Sequence record: MW822008.1
From: Escherichia phage BF17
Strand: one strand, 5' to 3'
Length of the DNA: 64,000 nt
The translations under genes were made by a program, and so were the position numbers. The notes beneath the pieces were generated by a model. It did not search any database and was not told the DNA's origin. It saw only the letters and a program-made list of their open reading frames with translations. Numbering within the stretch: the stretch's first letter is position 1; each line of letters begins with the position of its first letter. Of this stretch, positions 26,913 through 43,019 are shown piece by piece.

Positions 26913-27155
26913 ATGAAAGTACTGACAGAAATAGAAATGTATCATAGATTTAATAAGTACTATCATTTACTTAAGCCTATACAGAGGATTAAATGTCCAT
27001 TTGAAGAGAAACAGGTTTTAATCTATGAGCACAAGTTCTTTGTATCATTAGGTACAGATCAACAAGAGTACTATTTGACGTTGTACTTGATTACATTAAT
27101 AGATTTAATTCACTATAAAACCAAACAAGCTAATAAAGAGAAATATGAAAACTAA
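26913..27155 (+). CDS. family A paralog (SLGTDQQE)
   Basis: internal ATG of ORF 26880. Confidence 0.6.
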   Translation: MKVLTEIEMYHRFNKYYHLLKPIQRIKCPFEEKQVLIYEHKFFVSLGTDQQEYYLTLYLITLIDLIHYKTKQANKEKYEN

Positions 27156-27489
27156 TATACAACTCAAGGTATATAAATCATTTGAACATACATATATCAA
27201 AAGTAGTCTATGTAGAGATGTAATGGATTACAAGGGTAAGCCATTCACAATTACCTATGATTCTTATGTTAGTGATTTATATATATCATTTGTTAATTAC
27301 GAAAATAAAATATACAAGCACGTTGATATTAAAGATTTAAGTACTTTATCACCAGAGGAATACTTTCAGGAATCATTAGTATGGGATTTAGAGTTTCCTA
27401 TGCCATTAGTACATAAGATGATAGTACTAATGAAAGAATCTAAACAGGAGCCTAATGGTGATTATGAAGAACACACAGTTGAGTACTGA
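27145..27489 (+). CDS. family B paralog (PEEYFQESLVWD)
   Basis: ORF track; conserved acidic-aromatic FQ motif in C-terminal third. Confidence 0.65.
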   Translation: MKTNIQLKVYKSFEHTYIKSSLCRDVMDYKGKPFTITYDSYVSDLYISFVNYENKIYKHVDIKDLSTLSPEEYFQESLVWDLEFPMPLVHKMIVLMKESKQEPNGDYEEHTVEY

Positions 27490-27850
27490 TAATATTAAGA
27501 GTTATACAAGCTCAAGTACTGTGACAATCGAAGTGAATTCTATTAATGCTGGTAATGCAGTAGATAAGTTCTTTATTGCTCAAGGGTACAGGAAAGATAT
27601 TCATCAATATTGTTCAGTATATGGGGAGTACAATAGTACTGAAGATATAATTTATTGGTCAACACATCAAGATTATCTAACTAAAATTGGCGTTCCAGAT
27701 GTTAGTACTTTATCTGAAGAAGAATACTTTCAGTACAGCTTAGTACATGATGTACCTATACCTTTAGGGTTAATCAAGGGTATACAGGAAGAGGTTCATA
27801 AGCTTAAATCCATGAGTAAAGGTACTTTCATTAGAACAGTGCAATACTAG
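27455..27850 (+). CDS. family B paralog (EEEYFQYSLVHD)
   Basis: ORF track; RBS AGGAG. Confidence 0.65.
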   Translation: MVIMKNTQLSTDNIKSYTSSSTVTIEVNSINAGNAVDKFFIAQGYRKDIHQYCSVYGEYNSTEDIIYWSTHQDYLTKIGVPDVSTLSEEEYFQYSLVHDVPIPLGLIKGIQEEVHKLKSMSKGTFIRTVQY

Positions 27851-27851
27851 C

Positions 27852-27880
27852 TTGACAGTACTTTTCATTACTGATATAGT
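27852..27880 (+). promoter_or_regulatory. sigma70-like promoter (TTGACA-17-TATAGT)
   Basis: TTGACA 27852-27857, TATAGT 27875-27880. Confidence 0.55.
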
Positions 27881-27911
27881 ACCTGTACGTTAATCATTAG
27901 GGTAGAAAATT

Positions 27912-28157
27912 ATGTTAAATTTTTTAAATTTCCTTATCGTCTTGTGTATTGTTCTTGGGATTGCACCATTTGTATTGTATTTCATGGATTCAGATGAAAT
28001 GCAGAAGATGAATTGCACAAGGACAGGACAGAGTAGAGTAGAGACGATTCTTATGCCTGTTACGGTTATTGTTAACAACATGCCCATTACGAACATGGTC
28101 CCTACCCTAACGACAACGTACCAGTACTCTTGTGCTGACGGAGAGAGGTGGAGATGA
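27912..28157 (+). CDS. small membrane protein (81 aa) with N-terminal TM helix
   Basis: MLNFLNFLIVLCIVLGIAPFVLYF hydrophobic segment. Confidence 0.6.
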   Translation: MLNFLNFLIVLCIVLGIAPFVLYFMDSDEMQKMNCTRTGQSRVETILMPVTVIVNNMPITNMVPTLTTTYQYSCADGERWR

Positions 28158-28465
28158 AATTTAATATAGCAAAAACATCTAATATATGTATATTTGGTTA
28201 TGCCGAAGAGTTGGGTGATATTGACATTCTTTTGTACAAAAAGGATGGTGTTATGCATTTCAAGTACCAGGATGAAGAGGCAGACAATTATCTTTTACCT
28301 AATTTAGTACAAATGCAGGAAGATGAATTATTCCAGTACAGCTTAGTATACGACATTGATATTTGCACGATGCCAGTACTAATTAGTATTCAAAAAGTGA
28401 TGCTCGATATGTATGATAAGCTAATACAAGGTATGTCAGGGAGGATCATTGAAATTGACATATAA
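28148..28465 (+). CDS. family B paralog (EDELFQYSLVYD)
   Basis: ORF track. Confidence 0.65.
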   Translation: MEMKFNIAKTSNICIFGYAEELGDIDILLYKKDGVMHFKYQDEEADNYLLPNLVQMQEDELFQYSLVYDIDICTMPVLISIQKVMLDMYDKLIQGMSGRIIEIDI

Positions 28466-28661
28466 GAATATACCTAATGCATATGAAATGAAGTACAGGG
28501 AGTTTATTAAAAATGTACACACCGATCCTTTTAATATCAAAATATCAGATTTTGATGTATTATTTTATCTAGGGACAATAGCACAGGATCAATGCGTTGA
28601 TAAGCTCATATGGTCCTTGAAAATGGAGATACAATGCAGACCCAAATATATAAAAAGGTAG
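28449..28661 (+). CDS. family A-like paralog (YLGTIAQD)
   Basis: ORF track. Confidence 0.55.
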   Translation: MKLTYKNIPNAYEMKYREFIKNVHTDPFNIKISDFDVLFYLGTIAQDQCVDKLIWSLKMEIQCRPKYIKR

Positions 28662-28897
28662 ATTCTTTATTGTACGCTTCAAAGTACAGGGATTTTTGTT
28701 TACGAGGGGGAGAGGAAGATTTCTCTCTGAGATTATCTGAATTTAATATGTTATTTTATCTTGGTACAAAAGATCAAGAAGATACAGTACAGAAATTTAT
28801 CAAGCACCTTGAACAAAAAATTCATATGCAAATTTTTATGCTTAAGGTACATAATGAGATAAACAAATATGAACCCAACAATAGTACAGGATCTTAA
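28634..28897 (+). CDS. family A-like paralog (YLGTKDQE)
   Basis: internal ATG of ORF 28610. Confidence 0.55.
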   Translation: MQTQIYKKVDSLLYASKYRDFCLRGGEEDFSLRLSEFNMLFYLGTKDQEDTVQKFIKHLEQKIHMQIFMLKVHNEINKYEPNNSTGS

Positions 28898-29255
28898 ACA
28901 AGTAATATTCCTTTTGAATACCAGAAGTGAATTGTATACAGAGTTAAAAGAGATTAATGCATTTTATCAGAATTTTGTAATCCAAGAGTTCAGTGATTTA
29001 ATTACAGATGCATTATTTGAATTCTCGGAGAAATACAAAGGAACAGAGTTCAGTGTTAAGAATGTTATTCGTCCAAGTACAAGGAAAATTATATTATCAC
29101 ATTTTACATTTGACAATAAAGATTTATTCAGTCATAATCCAAGTACAGCTTTATATTTTATTCCTGATTCAGATAAAAATCATCCTATTCATTACGGATG
29201 GATTTTGTCATATATAGTACAAGGAAAGGAGTATCCTATTAAATGGAAAGATTAG
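28869..29255 (+). CDS. hypothetical protein (128 aa)
   Basis: ORF track. Confidence 0.55.
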   Translation: MNPTIVQDLKQVIFLLNTRSELYTELKEINAFYQNFVIQEFSDLITDALFEFSEKYKGTEFSVKNVIRPSTRKIILSHFTFDNKDLFSHNPSTALYFIPDSDKNHPIHYGWILSYIVQGKEYPIKWKD

Positions 29256-29403
29256 GGCGATTAGATTATTACACAATTAATACAAATTATTTGTTGCGTA
29301 ATATAAAATCCGATTACAAAATATGGATAAAGAACAGAGATAGCATGTGTTATGAATTTTATTTAGATTATGCTATCAAACGATTTTTAAGAGAAGAACA
29401 TTA

Positions 29404-29607
29404 ATGCAAAAGATTAATACGATAACATTAAATGCATTACAGGATTCATTATTAGATAGTATTAAGATGTATTACAATATACATTTGAAGGGTGGTATTG
29501 ATGATTACGATTATTATTTGAGTTTAATTACATTTGAGCACCTTTCAGTACAGGACAGGATTTTACATCCTACAAATCCTAGGTATCCATCGATAGGTAA
29601 ATTATGA
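29404..29607 (+). CDS. hypothetical protein (67 aa)
   Basis: ORF track. Confidence 0.5.
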   Translation: MQKINTITLNALQDSLLDSIKMYYNIHLKGGIDDYDYYLSLITFEHLSVQDRILHPTNPRYPSIGKL

Positions 29608-30158
29608 ATGAGATAGAGTTATTAGCACACAAGATAAGTACAATAATGCTTATCCTCAATAACAACCATCCTATATCGCAGATAGATGGAATCCTGAGTC
29701 AGAGGACAGGTGGTAGTTTATATTTGTCCATAAACGCAGATATCGCAAGGAAATACATTGATATTGACATTGATGTTGAAATCGAATATGATACAACGGG
29801 GATTGTTGGTGTAGGTGCATTAATCAGTTCAAATCCAGTATCAGCATCCCCATTGACCAAAGATGTTAGTACAGGATTCGAAGGGTATTTGTGGTACAAT
29901 ACCAATGATGATTATTTTATATATCAGCATTCCAATACAAATTATGATGAAGACAAATTTCAGTTCATAGACCCTTATGATGAAGCTGAAGTATTTCAAA
30001 AATCATTAATCACAAAACCGCATGAGATGATGTATCTAATTTTATTCAGTACAATGCATTTGAATCCATTAATTAAAGGTTTAAAATTTTATATTCAATT
30101 AAATTTAGTCCATGTAGTTTATGATTTATTAATGCAAGGATATAGTTATGAAGTATAA
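29604..30158 (+). CDS. family B-like paralog (EAEVFQKSLIT; C-terminal LIKGLKFYIQ)
   Basis: ATGA overlap; copy 1 of a tandem segmental duplication. Confidence 0.65.
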   Translation: MNEIELLAHKISTIMLILNNNHPISQIDGILSQRTGGSLYLSINADIARKYIDIDIDVEIEYDTTGIVGVGALISSNPVSASPLTKDVSTGFEGYLWYNTNDDYFIYQHSNTNYDEDKFQFIDPYDEAEVFQKSLITKPHEMMYLILFSTMHLNPLIKGLKFYIQLNLVHVVYDLLMQGYSYEV

Positions 30159-30230
30159 AATGAAGTATAAAATGATGTATACCCCAAGATATGATTTATG
30201 TTGAATTAGAAGATGATGCATCCATCAATA
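30148..30230 (+). pseudogene. truncated remnant of the 5' end of gene 30738 created by segmental duplication
   Basis: GGATATAGTTATGAAGTATAAAATGA...CCCCAAGATATGATTTATGTTGAATTAGAAGATGATG nearly identical to 30728-30800 with 1-nt insertion. Confidence 0.6.
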
Positions 30231-30241
30231 GGTAATAATAT

Positions 30242-30748
30242 ATGAATGAGATAGAATTATTAGCACACAAGATTAGTACAGTAATGCTTATGCTCAAGAA
30301 TAATCATTCTATGCATAAGTACATTTATATAGGTGATTTACGCATAGAAGATAGATATGATAAATTATCGTTTTTGTTTAAAGATGAAAGTAATGCAAAA
30401 GTTTGTTTTGCAGCATTTGCCCAAGGCAATCCAGAACAAGCATCTCCTGTTATATACGAAAATAGTGAAGGGTATTTGTGGGTCAACACAAACGATTATT
30501 TCTTTTATGATTTGAAACAAAATGATGAAGTAGAAGCACGAATTGATTTAATTGATATTAGTTCAGATTGTAGTTCTGAATTATTTCAGAAATCGTTATT
30601 ATACAGTCCTCGTCAAATACATTATCTAAAGTTATTCAGTTCATTGTACGCGAATCCTTTAATTAAGGGTTTTAAATTTTATATCAAAATTCCGTACCTT
30701 TCAAACGTTTATGATATTTTGATGCAAGGATATAGTTATGAAGTATAA
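30242..30748 (+). CDS. family B-like paralog (SSELFQKSLLY); copy 2 of duplication
   Basis: N-terminus MNEIELLAHKIST shared with 29604 gene. Confidence 0.65.
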   Translation: MNEIELLAHKISTVMLMLKNNHSMHKYIYIGDLRIEDRYDKLSFLFKDESNAKVCFAAFAQGNPEQASPVIYENSEGYLWVNTNDYFFYDLKQNDEVEARIDLIDISSDCSSELFQKSLLYSPRQIHYLKLFSSLYANPLIKGFKFYIKIPYLSNVYDILMQGYSYEV

Positions 30749-31049
30749 AATGATGTATACCCCAGATATGATTTATGTTGAATTAGAAGATGATGACGAT
30801 GGGTGGAATTTGATTTATTCAAGAAGTTCAGGTTGGTACATGGCACATTTAAATGATTCGATAGTTACAGATTATTTTGTAGATTTCAATACATTATCCG
30901 ATGAAGAATTGTTCCAACAGCAATTAGTGATTGACACGGGTGGTTATGATGTCTTATTATTAAAAAAGATACAGAAAGCTGTTATTGATTTTAAGCCCAT
31001 GATATGGCAAAGGAAATATTATGACCTCGAAGTACCGTACCAGCAATGA
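30738..31049 (+). CDS. family B paralog (DEELFQQQLVID)
   Basis: ORF track. Confidence 0.65.
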   Translation: MKYKMMYTPDMIYVELEDDDDGWNLIYSRSSGWYMAHLNDSIVTDYFVDFNTLSDEELFQQQLVIDTGGYDVLLLKKIQKAVIDFKPMIWQRKYYDLEVPYQQ

Positions 31050-31587
31050 TATTCAGTACACCTACGCTAATGCAATCCTTATGGGACAAAAGTTAGCTTG
31101 TATTGTTGCAGCCTTATATAATGCACAGAAAGATTACAAGCGTCACATCCACAAATGTATTGGTATTATTCCATCGAAGTACAATACATATATTACGTGC
31201 ACGAGTCATTTTGATAAACGATTCAATACACCTGATAACCCAAATGCCCGTAGTGTTATTGGTCTTTTGGATTTTGCCCCTGGGGCTGTTATTGGAAAGA
31301 ATGATTTAGAGTACGCATGGTATAATAAAAATTCCCCATTAGTAATGGTAACATATAATAAAGAAACGAACAAAACAATAGAGTACAATACATATAAATC
31401 AGAGGAAGAATTTTTCCAAGGTTCAATGCTTGTACCAGTGCGTTTGTTATTTTATAATGTCATAATGAGTACAGTACACAATAGTCCATTACACAAGAAT
31501 CACAAAATTAATTTCAATTTTTGTGCTTATGCGATTGATGGTGTTTATGAGTGCTTAATGGAGATATTGAGTTATGAAGCTGAATAA
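31021..31587 (+). CDS. family B paralog (EEEFFQGSMLV)
   Basis: ORF track. Confidence 0.6.
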   Translation: MTSKYRTSNDIQYTYANAILMGQKLACIVAALYNAQKDYKRHIHKCIGIIPSKYNTYITCTSHFDKRFNTPDNPNARSVIGLLDFAPGAVIGKNDLEYAWYNKNSPLVMVTYNKETNKTIEYNTYKSEEEFFQGSMLVPVRLLFYNVIMSTVHNSPLHKNHKINFNFCAYAIDGVYECLMEILSYEAE

Positions 31588-31915
31588 TACATTTGATATT
31601 AATAAGTTAAGAGAATGGTTTTATAGTATTGAAATTGAAGCCATCCCGTATCATAGATATGAACAATATAATTTAACCAGTATTGATATCAGTGAGTTGT
31701 ACGCGTATTATCAAAGTGCATTAGAGATGCATAAGTTATTTTTGAGTACAGATTTTGTTCTAAATTACAATTTTGAGGAATTTAAAAATTATAATTTAGT
31801 ACAGAAATATGTAGTAGCAAAGTACATGTACAATCAAGGAATCAAAGGTTGCATCGAATTCAATACCGTTCTTGTTTTAGTTGAGGTAATTTTATGCACC
31901 GCATGTCTGATTTAG
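31574..31915 (+). CDS. hypothetical protein (113 aa)
   Basis: ORF track. Confidence 0.5.
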   Translation: MKLNNTFDINKLREWFYSIEIEAIPYHRYEQYNLTSIDISELYAYYQSALEMHKLFLSTDFVLNYNFEEFKNYNLVQKYVVAKYMYNQGIKGCIEFNTVLVLVEVILCTACLI

Positions 31916-32400
31916 AGTTCAGTTTAGATGCAGCATTTAAATTTGTTCACAAAATAGAAACAATATACAGTACATTATGTGCAATAACATCAGTATCAAA
32001 AGAGCTTGATGTTGGTGAAAGGTATCAGGTGTGGAATAATTCATTTTTTAATAAAGAACATTCTTCGACGGCATTTTATATTTTAGCATTTAATCCCACC
32101 AATTGTTACCCAGAGAAGCATGAACGTTATCCGAATGACGACATGTGGTTTGAGTACAAAGAAGATTCTTATATGTCGTCAATTGTAGTTCCTGATGATT
32201 TTAATGCACAAGATTTAACAGAAGAGTGGTGGTTCCAGCAGAATTTAGTACATGATGATATTGATTTATTTTTCTATATTGCATTTAAAATGCTTTATCA
32301 CAACAATATAGTTAAAGAAAGTGTATCGTTTTCATGTCTATATATTGATGATTTGTACAATGAAATTCAAATAAACATGCCCAGAACGCCTGTATCGTAA
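31894..32400 (+). CDS. family B paralog (EEWWFQQNLVHD)
   Basis: ORF track. Confidence 0.65.
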   Translation: MHRMSDLEFSLDAAFKFVHKIETIYSTLCAITSVSKELDVGERYQVWNNSFFNKEHSSTAFYILAFNPTNCYPEKHERYPNDDMWFEYKEDSYMSSIVVPDDFNAQDLTEEWWFQQNLVHDDIDLFFYIAFKMLYHNNIVKESVSFSCLYIDDLYNEIQINMPRTPVS

Positions 32401-32425
32401 GATATGGGCTTTTTTCGTTTTGGTA

Positions 32426-32454
32426 TTGACATAGAAGACCAAAGCTGTTATCAT
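32426..32454 (+). promoter_or_regulatory. sigma70-like promoter (TTGACA-17-TATCAT)
   Basis: TTGACA 32426-32431, TATCAT 32449-32454. Confidence 0.55.
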
Positions 32455-32482
32455 GTGTAATCATTTTAAAGGAGAACATATA

Positions 32483-32995
32483 GTGAGTTTCATAATCCCA
32501 AGTACATACGAAGATGCATCAAGTGCAGTTCATAAGATTCATTATATTTTTAATTTAATTATTAGATCTGCAAAAATTAAAATGTATGCACCTCTTGTGA
32601 CAAATAATCGAAATGAAGAAATTTTTATTAGCACAGACAAAATTATTTTTCCATCTTTCCATGAAGATAGATTGTGGTTCATGCATTTAGCTGCATTACA
32701 AAAATATAAAATGTCAATTCGTAATAATTTGGATATACCGTTATATCATCCTGATATTGGAGAGGATGAATATTTTCAGTACAGTACAGTACACCGCCAT
32801 GAAGATATCTTTGTTGCTATGCTTATTGCTAAATTGAATACCGTTGATTTGGAGCAGCACAAATATAATAATACATCATGTAAGATCATAATCCCTGCAT
32901 TCATAGCTCTTTATGATTATGTGGTGCATAACATAAAAGATGATACATATGCTTTCAATGAAGAGTATTTGGATTTTTTTAAGGAGAACATATGA
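32483..32995 (+). CDS. family B paralog (EDEYFQYSTVH)
   Basis: GTG 32483 with RBS AAAGGAG; track start 32453 lies in promoter. Confidence 0.6.
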   Translation: MSFIIPSTYEDASSAVHKIHYIFNLIIRSAKIKMYAPLVTNNRNEEIFISTDKIIFPSFHEDRLWFMHLAALQKYKMSIRNNLDIPLYHPDIGEDEYFQYSTVHRHEDIFVAMLIAKLNTVDLEQHKYNNTSCKIIIPAFIALYDYVVHNIKDDTYAFNEEYLDFFKENI

Positions 32996-33522
32996 GCAGT
33001 ACAACAGTACAGAAAGCAATGTCATTCAATGAAATTGGTACATTTAAAGATAAGATCATTGATTGCCTTGAATACATGATTTGTAGTAATATCGAAAGTA
33101 TCGAGATATTTAACAAGACAAATCGCTCTTACCATATGATGTACATTGCAAACAATAATGGTATCATTCCATTTATTTCGGATAGTACAATATGGTACGC
33201 ATGTGATACGAAAAAAACCACAATAGGTTTACATTTATTTGAGACACATTATGATCTAATTATTCCTGAACATTGTATGCAAGAAGAAGAATATTTTCAA
33301 ATGCAATGTATACATTCACCATTAGTGTTGTTTAGTTTATATATTATACCTTATATCACCAAATGTGTTCATGAGAATAAAGCTCCGTGGAATCATGAAT
33401 TTGTATCGTTGAAGTTATTGTATAATGTATTAGTAGAATATTATGATTACAGGCACAATGGTACAATCAGTGATGTATGGGATTTTGAATCGCTAAGGGT
33501 GAAAACATACACAGGTGAATGA
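32992..33522 (+). CDS. family B paralog (EEEYFQMQCIH)
   Basis: RBS AAGGAG; ATGA overlap. Confidence 0.65.
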   Translation: MSSTTVQKAMSFNEIGTFKDKIIDCLEYMICSNIESIEIFNKTNRSYHMMYIANNNGIIPFISDSTIWYACDTKKTTIGLHLFETHYDLIIPEHCMQEEEYFQMQCIHSPLVLFSLYIIPYITKCVHENKAPWNHEFVSLKLLYNVLVEYYDYRHNGTISDVWDFESLRVKTYTGE

Positions 33523-34138
33523 TATGACCAGAATTAAAATGTATGATTTGATGCAGTACAGTAAAATTGCCATTCCAGTGCTTAATAAAGTGCTGGATGC
33601 ATTCATTGCCAAATACCCTGAGAATTCAGTGTTATGTATTCCATTTAGCGTTCCAGATAAAGATGATATATTCCAAGTGAATGTCAGTACACGTGGTATT
33701 ACATTACAGCAGAAATACATGGATACGGAATATTATGGAATAAAGTTGGATTCAGTACAGGGTTCAAAATCAGCCTATGATTTTTTTGTTCCTAATAATA
33801 TAGAGTCATGGGAAACAAACATTTCAAAGAAAGATGAAAATGATGTTCCTATTAGTGGTGTGTTCAACAATAAAGTTTTTTATTATTACGAAACCGACAA
33901 ATTCCCTGAAGAGTTATATTACAATTCAGAAATGAATGAAGATGTAGATGCATTCATGTTTCAATTATCTTTAGTACATGATATCATTGATGTTCAAGAG
34001 TTAAGAGCAGAAATCAATTTAGCTAAAGAGTTATCGGACATGCTGCCACCGTTTAGTATGCTTTTTTGTGAAGGTGGTTATTTTTCAAAAGAAGTGTTTG
34101 AACATTTCGTAGATGTTGTAAAAGGGTTGGATATATAG
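33515..34138 (+). CDS. family B paralog (DAFMFQLSLVHD)
   Basis: ORF track. Confidence 0.65.
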   Translation: MNDMTRIKMYDLMQYSKIAIPVLNKVLDAFIAKYPENSVLCIPFSVPDKDDIFQVNVSTRGITLQQKYMDTEYYGIKLDSVQGSKSAYDFFVPNNIESWETNISKKDENDVPISGVFNNKVFYYYETDKFPEELYYNSEMNEDVDAFMFQLSLVHDIIDVQELRAEINLAKELSDMLPPFSMLFCEGGYFSKEVFEHFVDVVKGLDI

Positions 34139-34139
34139 T

Positions 34140-34334
34140 ATGCTTACAGTTGATGTTAAACAAAAATACCGTAAGTTTGATTGGTTCACCGATAGTTTCC
34201 AGCTTGAATTATTACATATGAATATCAGTGAAACATTATGTGCAGAAACACAAGATGAATTTGATGATAGAGTGATGAACATAGTAATGCTTTCTTGCTT
34301 TAAACATTTTGGTTATTTTTTCGGACAGAATTGA
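34140..34334 (+). CDS. hypothetical protein (64 aa)
   Basis: ORF track. Confidence 0.45.
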   Translation: MLTVDVKQKYRKFDWFTDSFQLELLHMNISETLCAETQDEFDDRVMNIVMLSCFKHFGYFFGQN

Positions 34335-34342
34335 GGTAAAAA

Positions 34343-34858
34343 ATGCATCAACACAAGCATCATTCATATGATTTTGCAATTAACATTATGAAGTTCATTC
34401 GAGCGTTGGAGGATGGGAAGCTTAGTCATAAGTACAGGAAAGAGGGTAACAATTGGTTCAGAAATGATTCCGAGTTCAGTTGTCATAAAATCGTGTATAG
34501 TAATCAGTACAGTGCCAATTACCTACAAGATGTAGTGATGTGTTTTGAATACGTGTTGCAGTTCAGGGGTTCAATCCAAGATGAGTTGATGGAGAACATG
34601 TACATCCGATACCTTCCAATGCTCAAAGATGAAAATGTATTATTAAATTCAATATACCAACGAGTTCGTGAAATTGAGTGCAGGGATATATTAGATACAG
34701 AAGAATCGTATTTCCAGCAATCCCTGATTTATTCACCTGATTTATTACAGGTACATAATTTGTTTAATACATTACGTCAGAACATCAGTACAGACATATT
34801 TTTGTCATTATCGGATTATGATACATTTGTCAAAGATTTAGAGGAAATAGGATTATGA
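34343..34858 (+). CDS. family B paralog (EESYFQQSLIY)
   Basis: ORF track; RBS GAGG. Confidence 0.65.
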   Translation: MHQHKHHSYDFAINIMKFIRALEDGKLSHKYRKEGNNWFRNDSEFSCHKIVYSNQYSANYLQDVVMCFEYVLQFRGSIQDELMENMYIRYLPMLKDENVLLNSIYQRVREIECRDILDTEESYFQQSLIYSPDLLQVHNLFNTLRQNISTDIFLSLSDYDTFVKDLEEIGL

Positions 34859-35196
34859 GTAGATTTTCGGTTTGTGTGGTAAACATAAAAAGTGATGGTA
34901 GTTTAATTGAATTAGATGTATATGATGATGATAATGCATATGGTATTAAAGTACAGGACAATGATGTGCAGTTCAGTTCAAGAACAAATTTTGAAAATCC
35001 AGTCCAAGTTCCTAATTTCATAGAAGATGAAGCAGCACGTTTCCAATACGAAACGGCATATGACAATGTACATATGCATATTATTATGCAACAAAGTTTA
35101 GTTCAATTAGTTCCTTTGTTCAGACAAAATATATATGTACATGAATTGTCGATCAATGACGTTCGCAGTTCCGTATTGTTCGATACAAATATGTAA
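34855..35196 (+). CDS. family B-like paralog (EAARFQYETAYD)
   Basis: ATGA overlap. Confidence 0.6.
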   Translation: MSRFSVCVVNIKSDGSLIELDVYDDDNAYGIKVQDNDVQFSSRTNFENPVQVPNFIEDEAARFQYETAYDNVHMHIIMQQSLVQLVPLFRQNIYVHELSINDVRSSVLFDTNM

Positions 35197-35206
35197 GGAA
35201 AGTACA

Positions 35207-35749
35207 ATGAGTTTATTAGATACATTAGAAAAAGACAGAAGTGCAATTAAGCGTTTAAAAGAGCAAGTACAAAAGATTGTATACAACGTTGATAAGTTTG
35301 AGGTTCCCGGAAGATTTGGTGATATTTCCCATACGGAGATCAAATCCCTTAAGTCAGATTTGTTGATTAAAAATAAAAATGGGTTGATTTTAGTTTTGAG
35401 TTCAGATATGATGGGGGCAACACATAGTTATAATGCAGTATCGGTGCGTTCAGAGTGTGAAGGTATATATCTATCACAGGGTTTCAATAGCGAGACACAG
35501 GTTTGTTTTTGTGATGCAGTACATGACCCTATGAAGTTCACGAGAAGTGAAGCCCAAGCGTTATTAGAGCTATCAGACGAGAGTTTGTTTCAGTACAGTA
35601 CAATGTATGACAATGATAAGCTTCGTTGTATGTACGCTGTAAAGCATTATACACAGGAGTTCTCTGGATTTGCATACCTTTTAGTTAGAACCAATACCAG
35701 ATATATTGATATGTTAGAAGATTACATCGATAAAGTTGTTAATGTATGA
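35207..35749 (+). CDS. family B paralog (DESLFQYSTMYD)
   Basis: ATG 35207 with RBS AAGGAAA; track start 35135 overlaps upstream gene. Confidence 0.6.
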   Translation: MSLLDTLEKDRSAIKRLKEQVQKIVYNVDKFEVPGRFGDISHTEIKSLKSDLLIKNKNGLILVLSSDMMGATHSYNAVSVRSECEGIYLSQGFNSETQVCFCDAVHDPMKFTRSEAQALLELSDESLFQYSTMYDNDKLRCMYAVKHYTQEFSGFAYLLVRTNTRYIDMLEDYIDKVVNV

Positions 35750-35770
35750 TTTTGTGATGGGATGATGCTA

Positions 35771-35941
35771 ATGAAAGAGTTATTTGAAGATCAGTTCAAT
35801 ACATATGTGGATAATATTCTTTATTCCAGTCGTGCCAGTCAACGAGGAAATCGTGCTTACAATATTGATTACCTATTGGTGGTGCTGAGTTCACAGTACA
35901 CCAATGCGGTACAAAGGGTTTATTATGAAAAGTGCAAGTAA
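35771..35941 (+). CDS. small hypothetical protein (56 aa), below ORF-track cutoff
   Basis: hand-translated MKELFEDQFNTYVDNILYSS...; fills gap in array. Confidence 0.35.
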   Translation: MKELFEDQFNTYVDNILYSSRASQRGNRAYNIDYLLVVLSSQYTNAVQRVYYEKCK

Positions 35942-36134
35942 TAGTGATATTGCAAAGGAGAAGTTTAAGTGCAGTTTAGATTACGGTTTAAATGATTTTC
36001 TTACATGCACAATGTACAGGGATGATGATTATGAACAATCCGTAATTTCGTTGCACAGATATTTAGAAATAATTTACGCAAGATATCTTAGAAGGTTAGA
36101 GGGAATAGGGGATTGGTATAATGATTACGTTTGA
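35925..36134 (+). CDS. hypothetical protein (about 69 aa)
   Basis: internal ATG of ORF 35904. Confidence 0.4.
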   Translation: MKSASNSDIAKEKFKCSLDYGLNDFLTCTMYRDDDYEQSVISLHRYLEIIYARYLRRLEGIGDWYNDYV

Positions 36135-36357
36135 AGAACCAGAAACAATGAGTCCATATACGATGAAAGGTTTTGAATTCATGATGGATTCGATTTTGAA
36201 GAGTTCGTGTTTAGTACACAATCCTGAGCGTGCAACAGTGAGGGAATATCAGGACAATGCATTACAGCGTGTAATGAATATGTACAGGAATACGAGTCGC
36301 AAGCTTTGTGCGTTGAAAAGGATTGAAGAAATCAAGGTTTCTAGGCTGAATAAATAG
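36121..36357 (+). CDS. hypothetical protein (78 aa)
   Basis: ORF track. Confidence 0.5.
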   Translation: MITFEEPETMSPYTMKGFEFMMDSILKSSCLVHNPERATVREYQDNALQRVMNMYRNTSRKLCALKRIEEIKVSRLNK

Positions 36358-36369
36358 AGACGTTTCATT

Positions 36370-36400
36370 TTGACAGGCCGCTGGAGGGGGTCAAAAAAAT
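36370..36400. repeat. GC-rich palindromic island TTGACAGGCCGCTGGAGGGGGTCAA in AT-rich array
   Basis: TTGAC / GTCAA arms flanking a 15-nt GC-rich core, followed by A-run. Confidence 0.45.
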
Positions 36401-36556
36401 TTCCGCTGAAAAACATGCTAAGGTATATGTTTAATATAAAGTTTTATATTGTGTTTTTTCAGAGTACAGTTCATGTTTCTTGAAACAAAAAATACCCCGC
36501 CGCCGAACGTTCTCCTTATATTGGAGTTTACCTTATTAATTATAGTAGAGATTAAG

Positions 36557-36934
36557 ATGGAAATAAAATATAATGAATTTTGTGCAAGGACATGGATGTA
36601 CACTGGTGAGTTAGTTACGCACTCTAACTTATACAAGGGTGATTTAAACTACGCTAGGGACAAGATTTTAAAGTACTGGAATGCTGACTTTTATTTGATG
36701 GATTTTAGTACTGGGTTTAGGGGTAAAGCAACCGAGATGTTGGACTATACAGTACTTGATGATTCTGCACTGTTTCAGGCGGCATTAGTATTTGATAAGA
36801 AGTACATCTGTACATTAGAAGAGATGATTGAATTACAGCGTAGAATTAAATGTATTCACAGGGAATGTATAGATATCTGGTGCAGTACTGGTGAAGATGA
36901 TTTTTGTAATCATTTCAATCTAGGGGAAGTGTGA
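36557..36934 (+). CDS. family B paralog (DSALFQAALVFD)
   Basis: internal ATG 36557 of ORF 36449; start uncertain. Confidence 0.55.
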   Translation: MEIKYNEFCARTWMYTGELVTHSNLYKGDLNYARDKILKYWNADFYLMDFSTGFRGKATEMLDYTVLDDSALFQAALVFDKKYICTLEEMIELQRRIKCIHRECIDIWCSTGEDDFCNHFNLGEV

Positions 36935-36936
36935 TG

Positions 36937-37095
36937 GAATTTGATTTTTTAATATCAGTACATTCTTTTAAGCACAGTTATCAGTACTTTTGTAATTTAA
37001 ACAAAGGTGATTTGATTATGGATACAGATACAGAGGCTGTATACAGTTCTAATATTCTGTACAAATTCAGTACTAATCTGAAGGAGATTTTATGA
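36937..37095 (+). pseudogene. duplicated 5' fragment of gene 37463 (truncated copy, 52 aa ORF)
   Basis: 36937-37030 nearly identical to 37463-37550 (ATGGAATTTGATTTTTTAATATCAGTACAT...). Confidence 0.55.
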
Positions 37096-37463
37096 AAAAA
37101 GAAATTAGAATTCAATTCGGTATGAGGAAAAGAGAGGTCATCTGTACACTGAATCATGCGGTCGTGGAAAGCCTTGGTGGTGCATTACAAAAATTCTCCC
37201 ATTTTGTTCTTGTACTATATGAAAATGGGTCTTTTAAAATCTTCACATATGATGATTCAAAAAATTACCGTAATGATTTTGTAAATCTGACAGTACTGTC
37301 AGAAGAGGAATTCTTTCAGGAAAGTACTGTCTGGAATTTACCAGGAGCACCAATTGAATACGTCCGTGCTACACAGGCAGAAATGATCAAAGTAATGCAG
37401 AACTATCCAGAAGATTATATGACTAAGTTTCCTGAATCTATTTATGTAGAGGTTGAGTACTGA
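37092..37463 (+). CDS. family B paralog (EEEFFQESTVWN)
   Basis: RBS AAGGAG. Confidence 0.65.
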   Translation: MKKEIRIQFGMRKREVICTLNHAVVESLGGALQKFSHFVLVLYENGSFKIFTYDDSKNYRNDFVNLTVLSEEEFFQESTVWNLPGAPIEYVRATQAEMIKVMQNYPEDYMTKFPESIYVEVEY

Positions 37464-37819
37464 TGGAATTTGATTTTTTAATATCAGTACATACTTTCAA
37501 GCACAGTTATCAGTACTTTTGTAATTTAAACAAAGGTGATTTAATGCACAGTGCAAATGAGTATATTCATTACACTCAGGGTAAATTTACATTCATTGAT
37601 TACAGTTCATTACAGTATCCACACCAAGATATGCCGGACTATACATTAATGGATACCGCAGAACTATTCCAAGAATCATTAGTATTTGATAAGAAGTACT
37701 TGTGTACATTTGAAGAAGTTATTGCAATACAAAATGAAATGAAAGAGTATGCTGCTTTGCATAAACCCAATGCAAGTATTAATCAAGAATACAAATTCAA
37801 TTTAGGAATTCAAGAATGA
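37463..37819 (+). CDS. family B paralog (TAELFQESLVFD)
   Basis: ORF track. Confidence 0.65.
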   Translation: MEFDFLISVHTFKHSYQYFCNLNKGDLMHSANEYIHYTQGKFTFIDYSSLQYPHQDMPDYTLMDTAELFQESLVFDKKYLCTFEEVIAIQNEMKEYAALHKPNASINQEYKFNLGIQE

Positions 37820-38175
37820 CATATGATTATTCTATGTACTATTATAAGTTACCTAAAGGATGGGACTTGTGCTGTAATCTTATTAAGGGCGACTCGGAAC
37901 ATGAGTTGAGTTTATATATGCATTACAAAGATTCTTGTTTTAAATTTATTCATGTATCACATGACGACTATGACTATGAATCTGAGAGTCTTATAGATTA
38001 TACAGTACTGGACGATGGTGAACTATTTCAGGCTGCATTAGTGTTTGATAAGAATAAGTACTCCTGTACATTTGAAGAAATGGTTTCTTTGCAAAATGAA
38101 ATGAAGAGATTTGAAAAAGAAAACGTATTTAATCCATCCCCATCAAGAACGAATAATTATTATTTCAATATATGA
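37816..38175 (+). CDS. family B paralog (DGELFQAALVFD)
   Basis: ATGA overlap. Confidence 0.65.
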   Translation: MTYDYSMYYYKLPKGWDLCCNLIKGDSEHELSLYMHYKDSCFKFIHVSHDDYDYESESLIDYTVLDDGELFQAALVFDKNKYSCTFEEMVSLQNEMKRFEKENVFNPSPSRTNNYYFNI

Positions 38176-38184
38176 GATTATAAA

Positions 38185-38676
38185 ATGACATTACAGAGTT
38201 CATTGGAAAAAGCAAAGAAGATTCATGAGTACATGAATATGGCAAAAGAAGGTTCAGTTTACGGTGTTTTCAAAGACACAAGTACTCAATATTATGTACC
38301 GGATAACCTCCTTTATAATGACTGCTCAGATACAGAAACGTGCGTACTGGATACAGAAACGTGCATACTAGATACCGACCCTAATGATTATGAATGCTTC
38401 ATTAATATGCATAATGAGTACATGGTCTATATTAATGATACAGATACCATCAACAGTACTGACAGCGATTCCAATGACATTATAATTCCGAGTGAAGTAC
38501 TGGAAGGTCCGTGGGATAGTGAAGAGTATTACTTCCAACAAAGTACTGTATATGATAATGAAGTACTTGATGTTATTATAATTATGTGGTACTTTAAAAG
38601 TATTGGTTCTGGGAACTTCTATTTCGATTACAAATACGTAAAGAAAACTGTAGATAACGGTATTAACAGGGGTTGA
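38185..38676 (+). CDS. family B2 paralog (SEEYYFQQSTVYD); contains 21-bp internal tandem repeat
   Basis: GATACAGAAACGTGC(G/A)TACT(G/A) x2 at about 38322-38363. Confidence 0.65.
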   Translation: MTLQSSLEKAKKIHEYMNMAKEGSVYGVFKDTSTQYYVPDNLLYNDCSDTETCVLDTETCILDTDPNDYECFINMHNEYMVYINDTDTINSTDSDSNDIIIPSEVLEGPWDSEEYYFQQSTVYDNEVLDVIIIMWYFKSIGSGNFYFDYKYVKKTVDNGINRG

Positions 38677-38677
38677 A

Positions 38678-39148
38678 ATGAGTTTAGAAAGAGCATTAGA
38701 GATTGCGAAGTTAATTGATTTATGCAGCAAAGAAATTGTAGCAAATTGTCTTAATGGATATCTATTCAAGGAAGGTAAATCATATTGTCGAATGAGATAC
38801 GATGACAGTAGTGAGTACATTCACATGTATGAAGAAAACTTAGATTCTTCTGAAACAACACTCAATGGGTGTGATGTTAATTTGGAAGATAATTACATGT
38901 ACTTCTGTCGTGATGCTGATATTTTAATACAAGATTCTGACATTATATCTGGTGCAGCAGAGAAACATCTTCCGTATTCAGTACTGGATAATGACTGGGG
39001 AAGTGAAGAGTACTACTTCCAGCAGAATACTATCTACGAGGAAGATGTACTTGACAAGCTTGTCATTCTGTGGTACTTTAATAATACAGATTGTCCTAGC
39101 TTCTATTTGGACTTGGATCTACTACGAGTTATTAAAGAGGATATATGA
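38678..39148 (+). CDS. family B2 paralog (SEEYYFQQNTIYE)
   Basis: N-terminus MSLERALEIAK. Confidence 0.65.
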   Translation: MSLERALEIAKLIDLCSKEIVANCLNGYLFKEGKSYCRMRYDDSSEYIHMYEENLDSSETTLNGCDVNLEDNYMYFCRDADILIQDSDIISGAAEKHLPYSVLDNDWGSEEYYFQQNTIYEEDVLDKLVILWYFNNTDCPSFYLDLDLLRVIKEDI

Positions 39149-39588
39149 GTTTAGCAAGTGCACTTGAACTAGCACACAGAATACATCACTTCCACGATAA
39201 CATAAAAAGTGGGTTCTATGGTGATAAAGTAAGTGCATTTGGTGATGAGTATTATCTATCAGGTATAAAGACATACTCTGATGATATTTTACTTATGGGA
39301 CAGGATAAAGACAATACTATACAGTACTCTTCATGTAGTCAATATACTAATTTTTTTGTATATATTCCAGGTACTAAGATTACTTTTGACACAACAAATA
39401 CACCTGTTGACTTCGGGGTACTTGATGGCCAGTGGGGTACTGAAGAGTATTACTTCCAACAGAGTCTCATTTTTAACCAAGAAATTCTTGATTCCTTGGT
39501 TGTGTTGTGGTACTTTAAGGAATTGAATTTTGAACCATTCTTTCTTGACTGGGGAGCATGTGAATATTTAAGTACAGGGGATTTGTAA
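39145..39588 (+). CDS. family B2 paralog (TEEYYFQQSLIFN)
   Basis: ATGA overlap. Confidence 0.65.
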   Translation: MSLASALELAHRIHHFHDNIKSGFYGDKVSAFGDEYYLSGIKTYSDDILLMGQDKDNTIQYSSCSQYTNFFVYIPGTKITFDTTNTPVDFGVLDGQWGTEEYYFQQSLIFNQEILDSLVVLWYFKELNFEPFFLDWGACEYLSTGDL

Positions 39589-40076
39589 TGTCATTACAAA
39601 GTGCATTGAAAGAAGCAAAGAAGATTCATGAGTACATGATTATGGTACAGGAAGGTTCAGTACCAGGTGTATATAAAACATCTGATACTGAATTTTTTGT
39701 AAAAGACCGTGACGATTATGACGAGTCCGAGATATGTGCAGAAACATTAGTACTGCACACTGATACTGGTGACAGTGATAACTGTGAATATCATATGTAC
39801 AATCAGTACATTAGTTATTGTCGTAATGAAGATATTACCATCTACAACACAGATAGTGATGCTGATGACACTATCATTCCTTATTCAGTACTGGAAGGAC
39901 CGTGGGATAGTGAAGAATATTACTTCCAGAATAGTACGTTGTACAATGAAGAAGAATTAGATGTTATTGTAATTATGTGGTATTTCAAAAGTATTGACTC
40001 CAGTAGTTTCTATTTTGATTATGAATATGTAGAGAATACTGTAGGAGAAGGTAATGTCATTACAAAGTGCTCTTGA
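39588..40076 (+). CDS. family B2 paralog (SEEYYFQNSTLYN)
   Basis: close paralog of 38185 gene. Confidence 0.65.
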   Translation: MSLQSALKEAKKIHEYMIMVQEGSVPGVYKTSDTEFFVKDRDDYDESEICAETLVLHTDTGDSDNCEYHMYNQYISYCRNEDITIYNTDSDADDTIIPYSVLEGPWDSEEYYFQNSTLYNEEELDVIVIMWYFKSIDSSSFYFDYEYVENTVGEGNVITKCS

Positions 40077-40506
40077 AAAAGCAAAAGAACTACATGGATA
40101 CTTTGACGATATAAAGGCAGGAAAGTTCAAAGAAGTGTACAAAGCCGAGAACGGCAACTACTACAAGGATGAAATGTATAATAACTCCGTTGGTGTAAGG
40201 GTTATTCTTGGGTTGAATTCCAATAGTCCTATATCGTTTTCTGAATACAATAGAGATGCAGAATTTATTAGTTATGTTGAAAATGGTAGCATTCGTTTTA
40301 TTAATCGCAAAAAACCATTAATTTTGAATTATGAAGTACTGGAAGGTCCGTGGGATAGTGAAGAGTATTACTTCCAAAACAGTACTGTTTACGATGATGA
40401 AGTACTTGAAGCATTAGTTATTATGTGGTACTTAAAGAGTGTTAACTGTCCTCGATTTTATTTGGATTTCGAAGAACTTCGTAAAGATCCAGAAGGTATA
40501 GAATGA
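40054..40506 (+). CDS. family B2 paralog (SEEYYFQNSTVYD)
   Basis: ORF track. Confidence 0.65.
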   Translation: MSLQSALEKAKELHGYFDDIKAGKFKEVYKAENGNYYKDEMYNNSVGVRVILGLNSNSPISFSEYNRDAEFISYVENGSIRFINRKKPLILNYEVLEGPWDSEEYYFQNSTVYDDEVLEALVIMWYLKSVNCPRFYLDFEELRKDPEGIE

Positions 40507-40817
40507 AAAACTTATTCAGTGTTCAGTACGTCCCTGGTGAAATTAGTTTATTGTATCTGTTTGATCATGATAATTCATTATTACTAGTAGTAAAGAAATG
40601 CCAAGCTAGTTCATTTGTTGAATACATTCACGATAGTGAATATATACCTGATTTTTTAGAGTGTGATTATTACGATGAACATGAATCATTTATTTTCCAG
40701 GAATCGCTCGTGTGGGATAAATCGATCAACTTCTTTACGTTAATTGAATTACAAAAGCAGGTGAAGTATCATTGGAATTACTTAATCACACAGGATTACA
40801 TTGAGATAGAAATATAA
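40503..40817 (+). CDS. family B paralog (ESFIFQESLVWD)
   Basis: ATGA overlap. Confidence 0.65.
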   Translation: MKNLFSVQYVPGEISLLYLFDHDNSLLLVVKKCQASSFVEYIHDSEYIPDFLECDYYDEHESFIFQESLVWDKSINFFTLIELQKQVKYHWNYLITQDYIEIEI

Positions 40818-41125
40818 TGACTAAAAATGAATTTGATTCACTTTGTACGGTTTATAATTCATTAACAGAAATACCTGACTTTATTAATTACATTTCAGCT
40901 TTAAATCAAATTATGCATAGTTTTGAACAATCGTTTGAAGAGAAATATGCTGGTAGAAAAGTTCTATGTCATATGTCAATGTACTTAGGAGATGGTGAGC
41001 CTTACACTACAAGTACTACATGTGAAATAAAAAAATATAATATATTATTGGGGACAATAGAATTCACAGTATCCAATGGTGGTAGTTATATGTACTTTAG
41101 AGATGGAGTGGTTGAATTATTATGA
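40817..41125 (+). CDS. hypothetical protein (102 aa)
   Basis: ORF track. Confidence 0.5.
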   Translation: MTKNEFDSLCTVYNSLTEIPDFINYISALNQIMHSFEQSFEEKYAGRKVLCHMSMYLGDGEPYTTSTTCEIKKYNILLGTIEFTVSNGGSYMYFRDGVVELL

Positions 41126-41571
41126 GTTACGAAAGTGCAATCAAGAAAGCAAATGATATTCTACGCGTCGTTAAATTCTTCAAAGAAAATCCTGAATACT
41201 TAGCTGATGAAAACCATGATCACGATGAGAGATTGAGACGAAAAATTGTCGCTTTATTTGACACTAATGCGGATAATTATAGTCTAATTGAGTTAGCATA
41301 CGATTATATTTCATTGAACCGAAACGGCAATATAGTTAATATAGAAAGACATGCAACTGAAGAATCTTTTAAAATTTCAGATATTTTATCCCTGAGTACT
41401 GAAGAAGGGTACTTCCAGGGTAGTACTGTTTATGAACAAGGGACACTTGACAATCTATGCACATTCAGTGTAATATATCAGAAATCTGTACTAGATGTAT
41501 TTTATCTTGACACTGCTGAACTGGATACACTAACCAATTTTGTTACTACTGAAGAGGCTACATTCGAGTGA
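41122..41571 (+). CDS. family B2-like paralog (TEEGYFQGSTVYE)
   Basis: ATGA overlap. Confidence 0.65.
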   Translation: MSYESAIKKANDILRVVKFFKENPEYLADENHDHDERLRRKIVALFDTNADNYSLIELAYDYISLNRNGNIVNIERHATEESFKISDILSLSTEEGYFQGSTVYEQGTLDNLCTFSVIYQKSVLDVFYLDTAELDTLTNFVTTEEATFE

Positions 41572-42104
41572 TGAAAGTTAACATCAATGACTTTGATGCA
41601 TTACAAGATTTATCAAAAAAGATTCGCACCATTGTACCAGTACTCAAAAAATGCAGTACTGGTTTAATCGATCCTAGTACTGTTGTTAATGAGAAGTACA
41701 ATTTTCATTATGTATTACAGGGTACTGGGGCATTCCAGAAGTGTGAGGTGCGTGAGACACACGTAATTGATACATCATTGTTTTCTATTGGTGCACCTGT
41801 GTCGAATAATACTATTTTCCTAGACAACGCTGGAAATATTCAACAATTAACATTTAAGAAAAGGAAAAAGAACAATAACATTGGTGTGTATGCGATGAAG
41901 TGGGGGCAACCTGATTTGAAGCGTGAAATTCACATCCCTAAGTACAATTACAATGCATTTGACGAACAGTGTTTTCAACTATCGTGTACTGACCCTGACT
42001 ATGCTATCATTCAGTTCTATATGGAATTGCAGATTGCATTTAACAGTAATTTGTATATTAACTTATTGGCGATGAACATCGATGAAGTATTCAAAAACAT
42101 TTAA
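41568..42104 (+). CDS. family B-like paralog (DEQCFQLSCTD)
   Basis: ATGA overlap. Confidence 0.55.
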   Translation: MMKVNINDFDALQDLSKKIRTIVPVLKKCSTGLIDPSTVVNEKYNFHYVLQGTGAFQKCEVRETHVIDTSLFSIGAPVSNNTIFLDNAGNIQQLTFKKRKKNNNIGVYAMKWGQPDLKREIHIPKYNYNAFDEQCFQLSCTDPDYAIIQFYMELQIAFNSNLYINLLAMNIDEVFKNI

Positions 42105-42300
42105 TCGAATTGAATACATGAGAACTGTGAGTGCAGTGTGGGACATATGGTTCACTACTAAACCAAAAATGGATTACCATGACTTTAAGCTCTTGTTCTT
42201 CGTTGGCTCTAACAAACAGGATGTTGCAATGAAGGGTTATATTCAGCACTTACAGGAACTAATCCAGAAGAGAATATATGAAAATAATAGACCAAAATGA
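42082..42300 (+). CDS. family A-like paralog (FVGSNKQD)
   Basis: ORF track. Confidence 0.55.
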   Translation: MKYSKTFNRIEYMRTVSAVWDIWFTTKPKMDYHDFKLLFFVGSNKQDVAMKGYIQHLQELIQKRIYENNRPK

Positions 42301-42469
42301 CATTGCTAAACTATTCAATATATATTCTACTAGAATGATGCAAACAGACTCATATAGTACTGAATTCAAAGAGTTGAAAGTACTGATGTACTTAGGAACC
42401 CAATACCAAGAACAAGTTATTTTAGAATATATTAATTCGTTGAAGAAGGATATCCGTTATGTACGATGA
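42278..42469 (+). CDS. family A-like paralog (YLGTQYQE)
   Basis: ORF track. Confidence 0.6.
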   Translation: MKIIDQNDIAKLFNIYSTRMMQTDSYSTEFKELKVLMYLGTQYQEQVILEYINSLKKDIRYVR

Positions 42470-43019
42470 TTTAGATCTTGCGTTTGAACGTATGGTAATT
42501 TTAATGCAATGTGCAGAAATGCATGAAACAATCCGTCGCACCAAAGGGATTGAATATACAAGTAAACTATTCTCATACGAAAGTCGTCGAGGGATGGATC
42601 ATTTTTACTGCACTGATTGTTCAAAGTTTTCAGTACTGAAATATTATCATCCTACTGTTTCCAATAATAGTTTAATATCCACATATGACGGTGTTCTGTT
42701 TAGTGTAATGTATGACACATTACATCCATCAATTTCAATCTATAAAGATTGCGATAGTAGTTTATCGTATATAATTGAAGATTACTTATCTCCTAATACT
42801 GAAGAGAATATTTTTCAGAACAGTGTGTTGCATGATGAATTAAGCATAAAATGCATCTATATGTTCAATAAGTTAAAAGAGTACGCCGATAATAATTACT
42901 TAATTGATAAGTTAGCAGTATTGTCTGTTTCCGTTTTTAATACAAATGACATTGATATGAAATACTATAATGAGATTTGTAAAGTACATCATATGTATAA
43001 GGAACTATTATGTCAATAA
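42459..43019 (+). CDS. family B paralog (EENIFQNSVLHD)
   Basis: ORF track. Confidence 0.6.
   Translation: MYDDLDLAFERMVILMQCAEMHETIRRTKGIEYTSKLFSYESRRGMDHFYCTDCSKFSVLKYYHPTVSNNSLISTYDGVLFSVMYDTLHPSISIYKDCDSSLSYIIEDYLSPNTEENIFQNSVLHDELSIKCIYMFNKLKEYADNNYLIDKLAVLSVSVFNTNDIDMKYYNEICKVHHMYKELLCQ

Follow-up and report, generated by a model that had tools for sequence, protein, structure and literature searches.

Two similar genes lying head to tail, with a fragment of the gene that follows them caught in between, raise the question of whether one has recently been copied from the other or whether the pair arose in a different way. Such a pair is found in Escherichia phage BF17 (MW822008.1), of which a stretch of 64,000 nucleotides, hereafter the window, was analyzed. 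The window derives from an Asteriusvirus, a jumbo coliphage of the PBECO4/121Q type, and the region is 94-99% identical to PBECO4, JP4, slurp01, ECO103 4-12-1, phAPEC6, and G17, and 89% identical to 121Q. The original prediction, made from the letters of the sequence, described a tandem duplication of one long gene and the first about 75 nt of its downstream neighbor, and attributed it to recent unequal recombination that had generated new paralogues. The features needed to judge this prediction are the following, with positions counted from the start of the window.

29404..29607, + strand: upstream gene of 67 aa (ORF list).
29604..30158, + strand: L1, 184 aa, "type 1" allele of the long gene (ORF; PHROG 19795).
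30117..30218, + strand: left direct repeat, consisting of the L1 3' end and the S remnant; its partner is 30707-30795.
30148..30218, + strand: S', remnant of the S 5' end, matching the PBECO4-type S 5' end at 58/58 positions apart from indels.
30219..30241, + strand: right piece of the junction, duplicating the 3' end of a 67-aa-gene allele, CATCCATCAATAGGTAATAATAT.
30242..30748, + strand: L2, 168 aa, "type 2" allele of the long gene and cargo of the cassette (ORF; PHROG 19795).
30707..30795, + strand: right direct repeat, consisting of the L2 3' end and the intact S 5' end.
30738..31049, + strand: S, 103 aa, short member of the superfamily, "Sa" allele (ORF).
27145..56040, + strand: paralogous array of 39 ORFs, the L and S genes included (in-window iterative HMM).

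The tandem arrangement was borne out by the open reading frames and by the repeats. L1 and L2 are on the same strand, head to tail and collinear (BLASTP E 6e-43), and S has its start codon inside the final 11 nt of L2 (ATGAAGTATAA). The spacer between the two long genes measures 83 nt. It starts with approximately 60 nt of the S 5' end, containing a 12-nt tandem repeat and one extra base, and continues with a copy of about 20 nt from the 3' end of the upstream gene. The left boundary of the duplicated unit is marked by the final 20 nt of the 67-aa gene (29584-29603, TATCCATCGATAGGTAAATT), and the other by the last 23 nt of the spacer (30219-30241), which copy the 3' end of that gene. This right piece is identical to the end of the 67-aa gene of UE-S1 at 23/23 aligned positions and includes an AGG ahead of the L2 start codon. 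Because the S remnant adjoins a copy of the 67-aa-gene 3' end, the spacer is a true duplication-type junction, which joins the start of S to the end of the upstream gene. At the breakpoint a single nucleotide (G) is shared when a PBECO4-type partner is assumed and three (ATG) with a UE-S1-type partner, both partners being stand-ins for the parental sequences.

Pairwise alignment of the two copies, one of the checks that the original prediction had proposed, and a repeat search revealed three near-identical blocks: a 77-nt pair with 87% identity (29598-29674 and 30236-30312), a 53-nt pair with 92% identity (30117-30169 and 30707-30759), and a 36-nt pair with 97% identity (30183-30218 and 30760-30795). 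When 30117-30218 and 30707-30795 were treated as a single block, 86/89 positions were identical, far beyond chance, with 13 additional bases in the left copy. Twelve of these represent the tandem repeat, in which the unit ATGAAGTATAAA is doubled at 30148-30159 and 30160-30171 (TRF: 2.8 copies, 95%), and the thirteenth is an extra A at 30186/30187, where the remnant reads ACCCCAAGATATG and S reads ACCCCAGATATG. The truncated copy of the downstream gene, its internal 12-nt duplication, and its 1-nt insertion were thus found by alignment and TRF as described; the remnant holds 58-64 nt of S instead of the predicted 75 or so. It reads as a frameshifted ORF of 18 codons (30148-30204).

We also considered the spacer as a functional RNA or regulatory element. 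Its predicted fold was no better than that of shuffled sequences (z 0.12), comparison with Rfam gave sub-threshold chance hits only, and scans for regulatory signals returned 0 terminator-like sites and 18 promoter-like sites versus the 22.4 expected from shuffles. These results rule such an element out.

The predicted duplication of the unit is correct for its ends, which are 87-97% identical, whereas the middles of the two genes have diverged. At the protein level L1 and L2 share 43% identity with 20% gaps, including an indel of 24 residues, and over the middle of approximately 400 nt the nucleotide identity in semi-global alignment was 65%, which equals background similarity. Synonymous divergence (dS, Nei-Gojobori) was 0.85 overall, with a dN/dS of 0.44; by part, the first 24 codons gave 0.42, the middle 1.10, and the last 36 codons 0.65. 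For comparison, two neighboring orthologues differ by dS values of 0.50 and 0.85 between the window and phage vB_Ec-M-J, and dS between L1 or L2 and the next paralogue is saturated (>2). Measured in this way, the split between L1 and L2 equals or exceeds in depth the largest divergence of neighboring orthologues within the genus (dS 0.5-0.85). The value for the N-terminal 24 codons rests on only ~12 synonymous sites and is not significantly below that of the middle, and constraint at the protein level can by itself explain why the coding ends are alike. Separately, we observed that the lower dS at both coding ends is of the kind that gene conversion would leave, at sites too few for significance.

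Another proposed check was a comparison with related isolates. The locus was compared in 21-22 related GenBank phage genomes and three further assemblies, the latter comprising one NCBI assembly and two metagenome contigs. The cassette formed by the S remnant and L2 was present in some of these and absent from others. The long gene at the locus falls into three deep types: type 1 (PBECO4, 121Q, UE-S1), type 3 (ph0011, Ecwhy_1), sharing 55% identity with type 1, and type 2 (A4), sharing 43-51% identity with types 1 and 3. The short gene occurs as four types, Sa to Sd. The architectures are as follows.

L1-Sa, junctions read directly: PBECO4, phAPEC6, G17, CRJP21, SD-15, UE-S1.
Type 1 only, by BLAST only and with the S type left unread: SP27, Sharanji, E9.1, SHEFM2K, UB.
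L1-Sc: 121Q.
L3-Sd: ph0011.
L3-Sb-Sc: Ecwhy_1.
L2-Sa: A4.
L1-[S'-L2]-Sa, group B: the window, ECO103 4-12-1, EC22.5-2, TH47, JP4, BAU ELP-22, slurp01, one NCBI assembly, two metagenome contigs.
L3-[S'-L2]-Sb-Sc, group C: vB_Ec-M-J, CMSTMSU, WPEC3, EC.P1, Turkey3, fEgEco12, and, by BLAST pattern only, WPEC5.

Variants of the long gene are therefore alternatives to each other in some genomes and tandem stacks in others. About 35 genomes carry one or two copies, and where there are two, the copies are diverged. In phage A4, L2 is the sole long gene at the locus, in a version with 81% amino acid identity to L2 of the window, and the prediction that new paralogues were made here by copying the resident gene did not hold up.

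One cassette-free relative is very close to the window. PBECO4 differs from it at 1/984 nt upstream, at 4 nt in L1, and at 2/813 nt further downstream, and in PBECO4 the cassette is absent exactly between the repeats. Comparison by segment revealed that presence of the cassette is at odds with the relationships of the flanks. In slurp01, for instance, all but 2 positions equal those of 121Q in the downstream segment 31588-32400, and upstream all but 1 equal those of JP4. The flanks of the window are 72-83% identical to those of group C upstream and 72-75% identical in S, whereas L2 is 98-100% identical in 14 genomes on the two backbones, including its middle across both groups. Expressed as dS between the window and vB_Ec-M-J, L2 has a value of 0.02 and its neighbors have values of 0.50-0.85. 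Groups B and C also have in common the right piece of the junction, (T/C)ATCCATCAATAGGTAATAATAT, plus L2 itself, and the sequence upstream of the first long-gene copy in group C is quite different from this piece. From these comparisons we conclude that the junction most probably had a single origin and is now present in two backbones. Neither the 12-nt repeat nor the junction was found when IMG/VR was scanned for the exact patterns, and complete E. coli genomes contained no match.

The remnant differs in state between the two groups. In group C it is an open frame of 26 codons, MKYKMLYTKDMIYVELE(V/D)NDDVSINR, ending in a TAA 8 nt before the L2 start, and among the genomes read it varies by three synonymous differences and one non-synonymous difference. 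It is of the Sa type, being identical to the live S gene of A4 at 59-60/64 positions and to the Sb gene that follows L2 in the same genomes at only 51-52/63. As the resident S gene there is of the Sb type, no donor in the same genome could have kept this remnant Sa-like. In every group B remnant the left part follows the PBECO4-type Sa sequence (58/58), the frame is broken by one extra base, and 6 nt are missing at the breakpoint. The 12-nt repeat occurs in the window only and is absent from the 9 other group B sequences. The genomes thus display these states in an order. The remnant is first the intact 26-codon frame in the Ecwhy_1-like backbone; in the PBECO4-like backbone it has then undergone a +1 frameshift, a 6-nt loss, and conversion to PBECO4-type sequence; and in the window genome alone a 12-nt duplication has followed, which looks like a product of slippage between ATGA...ATGA repeats. 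Two things at this locus are recent: whether the cassette is carried, which differs between near-identical backbones, and the window-specific 12-nt repeat. The duplication itself, which the original prediction had called recent, is contradicted by the dS values of the copies, by their amino acid identity, and by a junction common to backbones that are 72-83% identical.

In our judgment the likely history is one illegitimate junction, after which the cassette of remnant and L2 was spread or lost by homologous recombination, the two long genes being old alleles that became stacked. A single illegitimate event at the level of microhomology would have joined nucleotide ~64 of S to a point ~20 nt upstream of L, giving the arrangement L - S' remnant - L - S. 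The partners in this event may have been two different genomes in a co-infection; alternatively, allelic exchange may later have replaced the first copy. Since the scar is well preserved compared with a dS of ~1 between the copies, the junction would be much younger than the split between L1 and L2; the two would thus already have differed when they were placed side by side, and the pair would consist of pre-existing alleles that were stacked rather than of a resident copy that diverged later. On the strength of these sequence comparisons, we conclude that L1 and L2 probably represent a stack of deeply diverged allelic versions, one of type 1 and one of type 2.

Once formed, the ~0.6-kb segment of S' remnant, junction, and L2 has acted as a cassette between direct repeats of ~90 nt, which consist of the conserved L 3' end overlapping the conserved S 5' end. 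Inside one genome, or when relatives infect the same cell, homologous recombination between the repeats would insert, transfer, or delete the cassette. The longest exact run within them is 32 nt in the window and 43 nt in ECO103 4-12-1, and exact runs of 32-43 nt are enough for recombination-proficient phages. A relative, Sharanji, has been reported to encode a RecA-like recombinase (PMC11895373). Gain by exchange in a mixed infection and precise loss mediated by the repeats leave the same sequence, and either may account for the distribution across genomes. The recombination mechanisms are inferred, and both L genes are presumably expressed.

Four other explanations were weighed against this history of stacking and exchange. 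An ancient duplication within the genome could have been inherited vertically, with the ends and the remnant kept alike by conversion or selection and with the cassette-less genomes representing deletions. The N-terminal helix and the C-terminal motif are constrained in all types of L, the group C remnant is an open frame, and precise deletion between the 90-nt repeats would be easy. However, the group C remnant lacks a conversion donor, given an Sa-type remnant beside a resident Sb gene, and L2 is 98-99% identical between backbones whose flanks differ by a dS of 0.5-0.85. We consider this explanation unlikely. Selection could nevertheless have kept the remnant S-like, with the group C frame coupling L2 translation, in which case the scar could be older than proposed here.

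It is quite improbable that the remnant is a deletion scar, left after a larger repeat (e.g. the 67-aa gene, L, and S) had been duplicated whole and had then lost a segment running from nucleotide ~64 of S into the second 67-aa gene, as far as ~20 nt short of its end. The sub-array in the window does alternate long and short genes (L1-S'-L2-S-L3-S2-L4), and a junction shows only which points were joined and not the number of steps. This account needs two events where one suffices, though, and none of the 22 relatives and three assemblies retains an intermediate form, in which a complete S or another 67-aa gene would separate the L genes.

A recent tandem duplication within the genome by unequal recombination, making L2 a newly born paralogue of the resident gene, would explain the head-to-tail layout with its junction remnant and the high identity of the unit ends. 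We regard it as very improbable in view of a middle that is 65% identical at a dS of 1.10, protein identity of 43% with the 24-residue indel, the same junction in a backbone only 72-83% identical, and the position of L2 as the only long gene at the A4 locus. An assembly artefact, that is a mis-assembled expansion of a single-copy locus, might be suspected from the repeat structure itself and from a 12-nt repeat confined to the window sequence, and is almost certainly wrong, as the two-copy structure recurs in the 9 other independent group B sequences from different laboratories (two metagenome contigs included) and, with the junction in its older form, in 7 group C genomes, giving about 16 independent assemblies overall, and the copies are too different to confuse an assembler.

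Returning to the stacking of old alleles, a bolder extension of it is that the termini of the family are themselves selected recombination linkers, by which co-infecting Asteriusviruses stack, swap, and shed alleles of fast-evolving host-interaction (possibly anti-defence) genes, the 26-codon ORF of group C being kept to couple translation of the cassette. We offer this as a tentative idea that is more doubtful than not. Equally tentatively, two termini would serve as the linkers: the 77-nt segment encoding the N-terminal helix and the ~90-nt overlap of L stop and S start.

The genes belong to a family of considerable size within the window. The in-window iterative HMM search retrieved 39 ORFs at E <= 1e-3, against none in five shuffled controls, and the motif [E/D][E/D]x[Y/F/L]FQxS (EExYFQxS) was present in 39/39 array ORFs, with FQ invariant. 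Full-length matches to PHROG 19795, a family of unknown function, were obtained for L1 (E 1.1e-93), L2 (E 1.7e-32), and the next long gene (31021-31587, E 1.7e-82), and S matched PHROG 33987. L1 is 96-99% identical to the single-copy gene in PBECO4, phAPEC6, G17, and others; its orthologues include PBI_121Q_349 and ACQ29_gp208, and that of S is PBI_121Q_350. The family of L1, L2, and S had no match in Pfam or NCBIfam and matched unknown-function families only among the PHROGs, and a profile search of the PDB gave nothing below E 0.1. An AlphaFold2 model of L2, built with 26 in-window paralogues, was of moderate confidence (mean pLDDT 66): the N- and C-terminal helices were predicted confidently, and the middle was not (residues 24-75 below 50). 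In sequence and profile searches of 5.8 billion proteins, relatives were found only in Asteriusvirus-like E. coli and Salmonella phage contigs. These findings support the view that the locus sits in a lineage-specific tandem array of the genus, which grew by tandem duplication.

The existence of a 121Q-type paralogue array is on record in Hua et al. (2017, mBio, PMC5646251), and the same statement is given again for phAPEC6 by Wagemans et al. (2020, PMC7247149). The array of Hua et al. comes from the same genus and consists of contiguous same-strand paralogues, as in the window. We infer that the two are the same array, the available text of the paper being without coordinates. As far as that text and the account of Wagemans et al. 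go, the array is presented without the junction, the allele types, or the presence/absence polymorphism, which are described here, and our literature search found no paper describing the L1-L2 locus. The pair in the window would also differ from a simple duplicate, being two old stacked alleles of which the second has been exchanged between backbones.

Among better-known systems, the poxvirus "gene accordions" reportedly described by Elde and colleagues in 2012, in which K3L is said to be amplified in tandem under selection, resemble the window in that the copy number of a host-interaction-type gene changes by recombination with a downstream-to-upstream junction. Accordion copies are identical and vary in number within a population; at the present locus there are one or two copies, which are 43% identical.

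A closer likeness is to the PeSL-mediated modular shuffling by which hyperplastic regions change in T4-type phages (Arbiol et al. 2010, PMC2839356; Comeau et al. 2014, PMC4122927). PeSL cassettes are also reported to form excised mini-circles. In those phages and in the window alike, small accessory genes of unknown function are gained, lost, or replaced between close relatives by way of short flanking repeats. An indel bounded exactly by repeats between near-identical relatives, which characterizes PeSL shuffling, is what PBECO4 and the window display. The PeSL repeats consist of a promoter and a stem-loop, whereas the repeats in the window are themselves coding, made up of the end of one gene and the overlapping start of its neighbor. 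The sigma-70-like promoter and stem-loop terminator expected in PeSL flanking repeats do not appear here, with terminator-like sites absent and promoter-like sites below expectation. If the idea of selected linkers is true, it would represent the coding-sequence counterpart of PeSL shuffling.

Taken as a whole, the locus is a real and well-documented but ordinary case of phage mosaic evolution. It reveals no new mechanism, and the role of the FQ-motif proteins is the more interesting question for these phages. Its value is as a dated, stepwise example of how a paralogue array changes in a jumbo phage, from a probable illegitimate junction through homologous exchange or loss to decay of the scar, and it corrects an easy mistake, in that a remnant at the junction of a tandem pair does not by itself mark the pair as freshly duplicated. 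Phage genomes are mosaic, as stated in the modular theory of their evolution, with exchange points at gene boundaries and, in lambdoid phages, "linker" sequences. The nearest relative of the window likewise changes from segment to segment, with breakpoints at gene borders. Unlike general mosaicism, the case described here lies within one paralogous family, and it is the conserved termini of this family that supply the homology.

A tandem pair of short S genes, Sb followed by Sc, is present in the group C phages (order L3, S' remnant, L2, Sb, Sc) and in Ecwhy_1, which has L3-Sb-Sc. Directly 5' of Sc lies AGTT, 4 nt from a long-gene 3' end, followed by ATGAAGTATAAAATG. Judged from this sequence, the Sb-Sc boundary is another illegitimate junction, the second at the L/S locus. 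An additional gene of about 110-116 aa was found immediately 5' of the long gene only in A4 and Turkey3, and in A4 its product has a signal-peptide-like N-terminus, MFNKIMFILTFVFLSFINTAHTAQA... (positions below count within each locus excerpt).

3751-4088, vB_Ec-M-J (L004): Sb-Sc tandem
3384-3730, Ecwhy_1 (L017): Sb-Sc tandem
2586-2936, A4 (L005): additional gene
1475-1804, Turkey3 (L015): additional gene

When window 28000-33000 was compared with the relatives, the closest relative differed segment by segment, and the breakpoints fell at gene borders. Phage slurp01 equals JP4 upstream and 121Q downstream, and TH47 has a foreign upstream part together with the same L1, cassette (S' remnant plus L2) and S as the window.

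Other repeats were also detected. A second tandem duplication lies 5' of the array of 39 paralogous genes (window 23923-24411; 269-nt unit, 1.8 copies, 77% identity). Short tandem repeats, which may be regulatory motifs, occur in the first 27 kb, a stretch poor in long ORFs; some are built on CTAGACGG, with unit lengths of 8, 24 and 32 nt, while several others contain AGTACT. Two sites matched the sigma-70 consensus at 11/12 positions, and these were given no weight because the regional total of sigma-70-like sites was lower than the shuffle expectation.

806-914: short tandem repeat
1597-1625: short tandem repeat
3661-3706: short tandem repeat
5916-5953: short tandem repeat
29764-29792: sigma-70 match inside L1, TTGACA-17-TATGAT
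30931-30960: sigma-70 match inside S, TTGACA-18-TATTAT

All 39 array members (window 27145-56040, + strand) share the motif [E/D][E/D]x[Y/F/L]FQxS[L/T][V/I]x[D/N], in which FQ is invariant (39/39). The TEV/NIa protease site is ExxYxQ|G/S, and a few members carry versions that resemble it, such as TEEGYFQGS in 41122-41571 and SEEEFFQGS in 31021-31587. Since the motif starts a confident helix in the AlphaFold2 model of L2, its resemblance to the TEV/NIa site is probably coincidental.
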